Counted from the first letter of the stretch, positions 3,666 to 21,003 are shown. The stretch: 27,253 nt of DNA from Candidatus Microgenomates bacterium (GCA_022866885.1 JALHWS010000093.1:1-27253), one strand, 5' to 3'. Made by a program: numbers and translations. The notes: generated by a model not told the origin, from the letters alone.

Positions 3666-3703
3666 CCTCGCCGTAGTCCCGCCAAAGGCGGGACGCAGGC
3701 GGG
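3666..3703. repeat. Nested GC-rich palindromic element
   Basis: Perfect GTCCCGCC-AAA-GGCGGGAC hairpin (3676-3694) inside outer arms CTCGCC/GGCGGG. Confidence 0.7.
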
Positions 3704-8788: not shown

Positions 8789-8827
8789 AACGTTAATCCG
8801 CCGATGGCGGATTTTACGTTCTGGGAG
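8782..8827. repeat. Long imperfect hairpin with AATCCGCC-GAT-GGCGGATT core, overlapping the secF stop
   Basis: Perfect 8-bp stem at 8795-8813 inside outer arms AGAACGT (8787-8793) / ACGTTCT (8816-8822). Confidence 0.7.
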
Positions 8828-19349: not shown

Positions 19350-19592
19350 ATGAAAAAGTGGTGGGAGAAATTTTACAAAGAAAATAAAGCGATTGTCTGG
19401 GCGGCGGTTGTTGCAATCATTATCTCTTTAGGAGTCTTGATCAAAGCCAAAGACGAAGTGACCCGCTTTACCCTGATTATGCCGGTCTTCGCCGGCTTTA
19501 TCCTTTTTTCGATCCTGATGACTTCCGATGAAGAATTGGAAGAAGAGGAAAAAGAAGAAAAGAAATCCCCCAAAAAGCGGTCAAGAAAGTGA
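19350..19592 (+). CDS. Small two-TM membrane protein with acidic/basic tail
   Basis: MKKWWEKFY..., two hydrophobic helices, then EELEEEEKEEKKSPKKRSRK. ATG 19350 is preferred over 19341 because 19341 abuts the -10 box. Confidence 0.7.
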   Translation: MKKWWEKFYKENKAIVWAAVVAIIISLGVLIKAKDEVTRFTLIMPVFAGFILFSILMTSDEELEEEEKEEKKSPKKRSRK

Positions 19593-20846
19593 AATTTTAT
19601 CCACTCCCGTATACTGGCGTAAAATTTCCGGTACGGTCACGCTGCCGTCTTTGTTTTGGTAATTCTCCAAAATGGCAATCAGAATCCGGGGAGATGCCAC
19701 CGCGGTATTGTTTAACGAATGGGTAAATAAGATTTTCCCCTCTTTGGTTTTGTACCGGATATTCAGTCTCCTTGTCTGGAAATCGCCCATGAAAGAATTG
19801 GACATGGTTTCGCCATAAGCCTGCCTCCCCGGCATCCAGGTTTCGATATCGTATTTCTTCACCTGCGGTTCGCCCATATCACCTGTACACATCAGCATCA
19901 CTCTATAAGGAAGCTTCAGATCCTGCAGAATACTTTCGGCGTTCTGGAGTAATTCCTCATGGAGCTTTAAGGAATTTTCATAATCATTTGTGGTTATGAT
20001 CACCTGTTCGATCTTGTTAAACTGGTGCAGCCGGTAAAGGCCTTTGGTATCTTTGCCGTAACTGCCTGCTTCACTTCGGAAACAGGGAGAAAAAGCGACA
20101 AATTTTTTCGGCAGATCTTTTTCAGGTAAAACTTCACCGGAATAATAAGCGGTCACCGGCACTTCGGCTGTCCCTGCCAGATAAATATCGTCTTTTTCCA
20201 GGTGGTAAACCTCATCTCTTCCCCATGGCAGCTGTCCGTTTCCGATCAAAGAGAATTCCTTTACCAAAGACGGGGCAATCAAAGGAGTGTAACCTTTTTT
20301 AATCAGTTTCTGATAGGTATAAAAAAGGATAGCCAGTTCCATCACCGCCGCTTCGTTTTTCAAAAAATATGTCCGGAAACCGCCAACCTTCACTCCCCTT
20401 TCAAAATCCACGAGATCCAGTTTCTTGGCTAAAGCGAGATGGTCTTGTGGAGTGAAATCAAACTTCGGCAACTCTCCCCATTTCTTTATTTCGACATTCC
20501 CGCTGGCGTCTTTCCCCACCGGAACACTCTTATCCGGCACATTTGGCACCTGCAGCATCAGTTCTTTATATTCTTTCTCAATAATTCCCAACTCTTCTTC
20601 TAATGTCTTAATTTCATCTTTTAACTGTCTGCCTTCGTTTTTGGATTTGGGATTTTGTCCGCCAGCTGGCGGATTGAATTTTGAATTTTTATTTCTAATC
20701 GCTCTCTTCTCCTCAATCTCTCCAATCAGCTTCCGTCTCTTTTCATCCACTACAAGCAACCGATCCAGATCCACCTTCCGGTTTTTATCAGCCGCTGCTT
20801 TTTTTACTAATTCCTTATTTTCCCTGATGTATTTAATATCAAGCAT
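19581..20846 (-). CDS. serS: Seryl-tRNA synthetase
   Basis: MLDIKYIREN, coiled-coil arm, PNVPD.SVP.G, LAGTAEVP, FRSEAGSYGKDTKGLYRLHQF.K.EQ, KKYDIETWMP, E..SNS motifs. Confidence 0.97.
   Translation of the reverse strand: MLDIKYIRENKELVKKAAADKNRKVDLDRLLVVDEKRRKLIGEIEEKRAIRNKNSKFNPPAGGQNPKSKNEGRQLKDEIKTLEEELGIIEKEYKELMLQVPNVPDKSVPVGKDASGNVEIKKWGELPKFDFTPQDHLALAKKLDLVDFERGVKVGGFRTYFLKNEAAVMELAILFYTYQKLIKKGYTPLIAPSLVKEFSLIGNGQLPWGRDEVYHLEKDDIYLAGTAEVPVTAYYSGEVLPEKDLPKKFVAFSPCFRSEAGSYGKDTKGLYRLHQFNKIEQVIITTNDYENSLKLHEELLQNAESILQDLKLPYRVMLMCTGDMGEPQVKKYDIETWMPGRQAYGETMSNSFMGDFQTRRLNIRYKTKEGKILFTHSLNNTAVASPRILIAILENYQNKDGSVTVPEILRQYTGVDKISLS
20641..20687. repeat. Heptamer array interrupted by a perfect 16-bp palindrome, inside serS
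   Basis: TTGGATT TGGGATT TTG [TCCGCCAGCTGGCGGA, 20658-20673] TTGAATT TTGAATT; encodes NSKFNPPAGGQNPKSK on the minus strand. Confidence 0.8.
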
Positions 20847-20916: not shown

Positions 20917-21003
20917 TGTCATTGCGATCCGCCGGCTGGCGGAGAAGCAATCCCGTCGGGATCGCCACGGGACGCACCGGCTAGTGCATCCCTCGCGATG
21001 ACA
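20917..21003. repeat. TGTCATTGCGA-type cruciform palindromic element
   Basis: TGTCATTGCGA-[TCCGCC GGCT GGCGGA]-GAAGCAATCCC-GTC-GGGATCGCCAC-[GGGACGCAC CGGCTA GTGCATCCC]-TCGCGATGACA. Confidence 0.85.

Follow-up and report, generated by a model that had tools for sequence, protein, structure and literature searches.

How does a perfect DNA palindrome come to lie within the reading frame of an essential enzyme? The question is raised by a 27,253-nt stretch of DNA from a Candidatus Microgenomates bacterium (GCA_022866885.1, JALHWS010000093.1:1-27253; hereafter the window), in which serS, the gene for seryl-tRNA synthetase (SerS), contains a perfect 16-bp palindrome, TCCGCCAGCTGGCGGA, which we refer to as PAL. 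The sequencing runs that contain this stretch come from sediment metagenomes. Our comparisons indicate that PAL is a tiny repeat, dispersed through the Patescibacteria, that was probably inserted into a heptanucleotide array in serS and is translated there, presumably as a tolerated passenger.

The serS gene spans positions 19581–20846 on the minus strand and encodes 421 amino acids. A genome-wide search returned a single match in the genome of this ultra-small bacterium (G000), making it the sole copy found. The product carries the Pfam domains Seryl_tRNA_N (PF02403, residues 1–104) and tRNA-synt_2b (PF00587, residues 217–396), residues 1–416 align to Thermus thermophilus SerRS (1SER), and the full-length open frame combines a coiled-coil arm with a class II core, as is typical of a seryl-tRNA synthetase. 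Its named homologues are serine--tRNA ligases of Candidatus Gottesmanbacteria, within the Patescibacteria, or candidate phyla radiation (CPR). PAL lies at 20658–20673 and consists of a 6-bp stem with a 4-nt centre. In minus-strand reading, its bases account for the last position of the N58 codon and for the codons of P59, P60, A61, G62 and G63, and the protein reads RNKNSKFN-PPAGG-QNPKSKNEG, with PPAGG as residues 59–63.

An AlphaFold2 model of SerS built with 68 homologues (mean predicted local distance difference test score (pLDDT) 83.6, predicted template modelling score (pTM) 0.81) contains one helix over residues 27–56, a non-helical segment over residues 57–65 (FNPPAGGQN) and a second helix over residues 66–97. 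The model thus places PPAGG in the turn at the predicted tip of the tRNA-binding arm, between both arm helices. PPAGG aligns with PKAPP at the same positions, 59–63, of T. thermophilus SerRS, and the arm is no longer than the canonical one, measuring 19 residues from RN to the G+xL motif vs 20 in T. thermophilus. PAL and its array constitute the arm tip and are not an extension of the arm.

The same 3-nt sequence, TTG on the plus strand and CAA in the gene sense, stands on both sides of PAL, at 20655–20657 and 20674–20676. Around it, PAL splits a heptanucleotide array on the minus strand (20641–20687; units AAATTCA, AAATCCC and AAATCCA in the gene sense) that encodes NSKFN...QNPKSK at the arm tip. 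When PAL and one TTG are taken out, four consecutive heptamers remain: TTGGATT, TGGGATT, TTGAATT and TTGAATT. An initial annotation, made from the window alone, had reported the palindrome under the span 20641–20687, which comprises PAL and its flanking heptamers, together with the TTG on either side, the array restored by excision, the peptide between the two helices of the N-terminal coiled coil and an expected location at the arm tip. Sequence checks, translation and the structure model bore out each of these points. It had also described PPAGG as added to the arm by an in-frame insertion, and here only part of the description stands: the peptide is indeed supplied by PAL, but the arm is not lengthened, and the frame is open today, but the footprint does not preserve it.

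PAL and its 3-nt repeat together amount to 16 + 3 = 19 nt. Because this is no multiple of three, the insertion in serS cannot be a simple in-frame event, and the length of the array must also have changed. Deleting either 16 or 19 nt from the present gene brings a stop at codon 69–70 and truncates the protein there, so the gene now depends on keeping PAL. A comparison across genera points to the size of the accompanying change, as alleles of miaA that carry PAL exceed the empty array of five units in G007, a genome of another genus, by four codons (12 nt), which equals 19 − 7. We infer that viable intragenic insertions are those paired with a changed number of heptamers.

PAL is one member of a dispersed family. 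The window itself holds two matches, where 0.03 would be expected by chance; the second, TCCGCCGGCTGGCGGA, lies at 20928–20943 between serS and the divergent S8 protease gene and agrees with the serS copy at 15 of 16 positions, the match that the initial annotation had noted. In the whole of G000, a draft genome of 1.28 Mb and 42% GC, 40 sites match PAL at no more than one mismatch and the reversed control matches nowhere. Counts within the family of this bacterium are patchy, with 78 in G018, 61 in G017, 45 in G001, 40 in G000, 20 in G014 and 0–9 in the remaining genomes. Across the class, the exact 16-mer was found in 125 of 301 sampled genomes, in bursts of up to 50 copies, and one genome of only 0.5 Mb holds 47. 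PAL is not local to this genome and, as judged by the 24-mer matches described below, is found across the phylum. Copies stand either alone within A-rich heptanucleotide arrays or as the apex of larger GC-rich hairpin repeats, whose ends read GTCAT...ATGAC and which resemble repetitive extragenic palindromic (REP) sequences. As RNA, the hairpin has a folding energy of −10.2 kcal/mol. Among the PAL variants of G000, 26 substitutions fall in the four central bases and 13 in the 12 stem bases, and because the stem changes less than the centre, the hairpin appears to matter.

The second copy in the window forms the apex of one such composite hairpin of the GTCAT...ATGAC type, at approximately 20917–21003. 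This composite repeat is absent from a relative whose SerS is 95% identical, in which the spacer between serS and the protease gene measures 83 nt vs about 216 nt here. It looks like a recent gain because it is absent there, with the two spacers too diverged to give exact boundaries.

Many copies are translated. In G000, Pfam domains lie on either side of PAL in at least 14 genes other than serS, encoding NnrD, a GHMP kinase, an M24 peptidase, MiaA, an M50 protease, ProRS, an ATP-dependent DNA ligase, IscU, a penicillin-binding protein (PBP) transpeptidase, MurT, a thioredoxin-reductase-like (TrxR-like) protein, a Mur ligase, ClpB and a Wzy/TPR protein. Across four genomes, long open frames contain 41 of the 111 exact copies, and these are read as PPAGG in 20 cases, RQLAD in 12 and SASWR in 9 (chi-square ~4.7, not significant). 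A second set, drawn from a 24-mer search described below and overlapping the first in some loci, gave PPAGG in 21 of 39 intragenic copies among the matches listed, with 10 and 8 in the other two frames (chi-square ~7.5, p ~0.02). PAL is translated in whatever frame it lands in, and the Pro/Gly frame is at best mildly favoured. A strong dominance of PPAGG, as suggested by about 11 of 16 intragenic copies in G000, was rejected when the larger four-genome set proved not significant.

Two further observations concern translated repeats. In the C-terminal tail of GroEL, PAL stands just before Gly-Gly-Met and is read as PPAGG, exactly in G018 (L080) and with one mismatch in G000 (G000:C20:435-450). 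Far larger composite hairpin repeats are also translated in frame: the MiaA of G018 (L071) carries an insert extending about 43 amino acids (~130 nt) beyond the G000 loop, the DNA ligase of G017 (L058) one of about 30 amino acids, and others lie in clpB (G000:C9:1340) and a Mur ligase gene (G000:C181:1522) of G000.

The junctions of PAL point to a preferred target. In four genomes, an exact 3-nt direct repeat, CAA or TCA, surrounds 14 of 31 exact copies with AT-rich flanks vs 4 of 80 that are GC-flanked, that is, nested in other repeats. Exact matches to the 24-mer TCAA-PAL-CAAA occupy at least 120 loci in public genomes and come from many Patescibacteria, including Gottesman-, Roizman-, Shapiro-, Levy-, Moran-, Nomura- and Wildermuthbacteria and many records titled 'Patescibacteria group'. 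Host titles that name other phyla were not trusted, as G018 itself bears such a title: several metagenome-assembled genomes of Patescibacteria, G018 included (L220, L233, record CAYGXQ01), are titled 'uncultured Gammaproteobacteria' or 'Saccharibacteria', and these names are unfit for defining host range.

From these loci, 80 were fetched and the period-7 register of the array was examined across 81 junctions. Excising PAL plus 3 nt restored the register at 52 of the 81 sites, vs 0–3 sites for any other offset, and the arrays concerned comprise at least 15 different heptamer units. Because the register is restored only by PAL plus 3 nt, across so many units, the junctions argue for a discrete unit inserted with a 3-nt duplication at TCAA, rather than for copied flanking array sequence. 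In G000, 7 of 40 PAL sites lie within 12 nt of a period-7 array, arrays that make up 0.67% of the genome and whose commonest unit is AAAATTC. A 17-nt asymmetric element, inserted in either orientation with a 2-nt CA duplication, would explain the data equally well as 16 + 3, and accounts for flanks being either TCA or CAA.

We then considered gain and loss among relatives, beginning with the 120 closest SerS homologues. Both the length and the sequence of the arm tip are hypervariable in this set; the shortest tips have 13 residues from the conserved RN to the G+xLK motif, and many lineages carry low-complexity inserts made from heptamer arrays or other hairpins. PPAGG occurs in this lineage and in G001 only, encoded each time by the identical 16-mer. 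In the relative with 95% identical SerS, PAL is present with two changes in its centre, giving PPTGG, and its flanks are identical, so it represents the same event as here. G018, a member of the same genus with 88% SerS identity, has no PAL in serS and a different heptamer-array hairpin at the tip. G001 belongs to another genus, and its copy has the identical 16-mer but TCA flanks; its nearest relatives are without PAL. Contigs from a single metagenome assembly provide a clean filled and empty pair, in a SerS heptamer array, for a related GC hairpin of 21 nt.

Other genes repeat this pattern. In the M24 peptidase gene and in nnrD, G000 carries PAL and G018 only arrays; the copy in the DNA ligase gene is common to both. 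In ProRS, the same loop holds PAL in G017, of another genus, and in G000, in different frames (IRQLAD vs PPPAGG), and the same is true of MiaA (NPPAGG vs IRQLAD), where the two copies also differ in their flanks (CAA vs TCA) and are offset by 1 nt. At the ProRS/MiaA loop position, G007 and G014, again of other genera, have the uninterrupted arrays (AAACTCA)x5 and (AAAGTCA)x4. The initial annotation had proposed a micro-repeat that spreads as DNA with a 3-bp duplication and adds peptide to an essential enzyme, and the dispersed family, the in-frame copies, the presence and absence among orthologues, the frame differences between genera and the register test all support this proposal. Peptides from the remaining frames of the same DNA, which it had anticipated, occur elsewhere as RQLAD and SASWR, alongside PPAGG. 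A PPAGG encoded by divergent, non-palindromic codons in relatives would have spoken for the peptide rather than the DNA; none was found among the SerS relatives, since G001 uses the identical palindrome and the PPTGG relative differs by its two centre changes. Empty sites in SerS relatives were found in part, in that the same-genus G018 lacks PAL, but the tip of G018 has another repeat and no near-identical empty allele was found.

The arrays vary in their own right. In-frame heptamer arrays of differing units fill the same loops of SerS, ProRS, MiaA and NnrD in different genera, with units that are CAACAGT-like or read CAGAGAA, AAAGTCA, AAACTCA or GTATCAG and its inverse (L007, the serS of G018; L014, L015, L020, L054 and L073). 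They are a hypervariable layer of their own beneath PAL. One of these units resembles the cyanobacterial STRR3 heptamer.

Taken together, these comparisons suggest the following history. Heptamer arrays occupy in-frame surface loops of housekeeping proteins, the SerS arm tip being one such loop, hypervariable in Gottesmanbacteria. PAL, a GC-rich perfect palindrome of 16 bp, lies in A-rich arrays (units TCAAANN) after (T)CA(A), with CAA or TCA duplicated, a footprint of 19 nt. For the order of insertion and frame-restoring events in serS, we infer that PAL entered an AAATTCA array at the arm tip after the split from G018 and before the split from the relative with 95% identical SerS, and that the surviving allele has an array of another length, in the simplest case one heptamer shorter (net +12 nt). 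The product, read as FN-PPAGG-QN, would form a Pro/Gly turn linking the arm helices and be carried as a tolerated passenger, presumably neutral for SerS function. PAL itself may be moved as a separate unit by a trans-acting enzyme, and may be 'selfish'. Two routes fit the 19-nt footprint: a staggered cut giving the 3-nt duplication, or a single-strand insertion of HUH type, which would take place 3′ of CAA or TCA by an element bringing its own copy of that trinucleotide.

PAL could instead not transpose at all and be passed between arrays with common units through ectopic recombination, gene conversion or replication slippage, in which case the apparent duplication would be flanking sequence copied along with it. 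Such exchange could yield in-frame products in a single step; many copies do share longer flanks of the AAATTCA type, and one orthologous gene has PAL at different array positions in G000 and G018 with the frame unchanged. We nevertheless consider this explanation unlikely, as the same junction and the 19-nt register restoration recur in at least 15 units (AAGTCAA, ATGTCAA, ATATCAA, AGCTCAA and others) that offer no more than 3–4 nt of homology, and PAL is also found at the apex of unrelated GC-rich hairpin repeats. The many copies at the apex of other hairpin repeats speak equally against PAL being the excision footprint of a larger transposon, composed of two abutting 8-bp terminal inverted repeats and a target duplication. 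Its arms do look like inverted termini of minimal size, flanked by a 3-nt duplication. In G000, however, we found no longer element bounded by the arms TCCGCCAG...CTGGCGGA and no pair of half-sites 30–5000 nt apart with matching 3-nt flanks, and the DDE transposase families DDE_Tnp_1 and rve, the only two searched, were not found in the drafts of four of five PAL-rich genomes (G000, G018, G103 and G151). An excision footprint is accordingly very improbable.

Selection for a function of the repeat, or of the peptide, has also to be weighed. Were PAL kept as functional DNA or RNA, such as a protein-binding site, a structural hairpin or an uptake-type signal, with its intragenic copies selected, one would understand why the 16-mer is exact across the class and its junction exact across the phylum, why stems are conserved far better than the centre, and why copies are both intergenic and intragenic. 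Set against this, related genomes carry anything between 0 and 50 copies and many complete ones lack PAL altogether, the copies do not keep to orthologous positions and are read in all three frames, and even the relative with 95% identical SerS has two centre changes; we therefore think a conserved function quite unlikely. It is more improbable still that PPAGG is a selected turn motif of the SerS arm tip with palindromic codons that are incidental, an explanation to which we give almost no weight. A Pro/Gly turn does fit the tip of a helix-loop-helix, T. thermophilus has PKAPP there, and PPAGG is the commonest of the three frames in the 24-mer set. But the identical 16-mer underlies both SerS occurrences of PPAGG while the nearest relatives are without it, in other proteins this DNA yields IRQLAD or SASWR, and the tip is hypervariable in length and sequence.

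Insertion of a dispersed repeat thus remains our preferred explanation, and several points weigh against it. The evidence for movement of PAL is indirect, a comparison of loci. A 19-nt insertion in an essential single-copy gene leads to a lethal intermediate unless the same event restores the frame. For this copy of serS there is no near-identical empty-site allele, the nearest relative without PAL being the 88% identical G018 with its other repeat. No mobilising enzyme was found among the DDE_Tnp_1, rve and Y1_Tnp families examined. The first two were not found in four of the five PAL-rich genomes, as described above. Y1_Tnp (HUH, PF01797) has matches in 16 of 21 genomes of the family, with two matches in G000, and also in each of the five PAL-rich genomes examined outside the family. 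The number of Y1_Tnp matches does not track the number of PAL copies, with G014 having 0 matches and 20 PALs and G020 having 10 matches and 1 PAL, and neither of the G000 genes has PAL or CCGCC-N3-5-GGCGG within 1.5 kb. The widespread Y1 HUH proteins of about 220 amino acids are one possibility for the mover of PAL.

A full-text search of the literature found no description of palindromic, in-frame or heptanucleotide-array repeats of this kind in CPR bacteria. By analogy, its size and its link with heptamer arrays appear to bring PAL nearest to the small dispersed repeats (SDRs) of Nostoc, and its translation nearest to the Rickettsia palindromic elements (RPEs). The SDRs, SDR1–8 of Nostoc punctiforme and other heterocystous cyanobacteria, were reportedly described by Elhai and colleagues in 2008 as repeats of 21–27 nt. 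Like PAL, they are very short and dispersed, some form hairpins, they often lie in heptanucleotide arrays or nested in other repeats, and their mobility was inferred from orthologous loci. PAL shares with them a length under 30 nt and a place in arrays or nested in repeats, being found in arrays, at the apexes of GTCAT...ATGAC hairpins and within other copies of PAL. Compared with the SDRs as described, it is shorter, at 16 nt vs 21–27 nt, is a perfect palindrome with a measurable 3-nt duplication at TCAA, and belongs to Patescibacteria, where it is often translated in housekeeping genes.

RPEs are elements of ~100–150 bp with their own conserved peptide, restricted to Rickettsia (PMC10969869). 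They resemble PAL in being palindromic and in occupying, in frame, unrelated housekeeping genes within a reduced genome, with a peptide compatible with fold and function, and the in-frame copies of PAL in at least 14 G000 genes and in 41 of 111 cases across four genomes match this description. PAL has neither their size nor a peptide of its own; its 16 bp target heptamer arrays and add 5–6 residues in any of the three frames PPAGG, RQLAD and SASWR. REP sequences and REPINs, their inverted doublets, are extragenic and flank their own gene for a REP-associated tyrosine transposase (RAYT), a Y1 HUH protein (PMC3116915). The likeness lies in short GC-rich palindromes in tens of copies and in Y1_Tnp genes present in most genomes of the group. 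PAL differs as a single perfect palindrome that is often intragenic, away from the Y1_Tnp genes of G000, which it does not flank and whose abundance it does not follow.

[quoted passage not shown] The two 8-nt arms of PAL are perfectly complementary, and the duplication has a fixed length at 14 of 31 AT-flanked copies and in 52 of 81 register tests. MITEs, however, typically measure 50–500 bp and derive from an identifiable insertion sequence, whereas PAL amounts to two abutting 8-bp repeats with nothing between them, and a search of G000 for a parent insertion sequence with the same termini found none, within two DDE families and draft assemblies. The GC clusters of yeast mitochondria are mobile, measure roughly 30–50 bp and include optional ones inside the var1 gene. 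They offer a suggestive likeness, as short GC-rich palindromes in AT-rich DNA that can be carried in frame in a protein gene; they differ in being organellar, in their size and in following other target rules.

A bolder interpretation goes further. PAL might be an actively transposing unit of 16 nt (19 with the duplication), which would make it the smallest mobile DNA known. A conserved Patescibacterial enzyme, able to recognise both the hairpin and a TCAA target within heptamer arrays, would act on it in trans. Together with slippage-prone arrays that can restore the frame, PAL would provide a phylum-wide mechanism that continually rewrites the surface loops of essential proteins such as aminoacyl-tRNA synthetases. 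We put this forward tentatively, and it is rather doubtful in its full form. If PAL truly moves, the lower size limit of mobile DNA drops and an undescribed mechanism is needed; the arithmetic of 19 nt with ±7 nt hints at an unusual interplay of insertion and repeat slippage, one open to testing. Much of the length variation in housekeeping proteins of the tiny CPR genomes, including the loops of tRNA synthetases, may stem from repeat DNA and not from selection at the protein level, and such variation affects alignment, annotation and phylogenomics of the Patescibacteria. The repeated hits in the same loop of ProRS, of MiaA and perhaps of SerS form a map of positions that tolerate arbitrary peptide insertions.

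Minor features of the window and of related genomes show further forms of the repeat. The window contains two more mini-hairpins of the form CCGCC-N3-GGCGG, at 3679–3691 (loop AAA) and 8798–8810 (loop GAT), which may be relatives of PAL with a 3-nt loop; counting all four mini-hairpins of the window gives 4 matches vs 0.03 expected. In G001, PAL lies within or is partly duplicated around a second PAL at two loci (L153 and L164), as TCCGC-PAL-TGGCGGA and TCCGCCA-PAL-GCGGA, which suggests self-insertion or duplication of the stem. In G018, exact copies adjoin the genes for tRNA-His (L134, G018:C33:1246-2122) and tRNA-Lys (L121, G018:C14:3526-4534), where tandem units of ~61 nt consist of the first ~23 nt of the tRNA followed by PAL. 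This arrangement looks like a repeat-associated duplication of the gene end.

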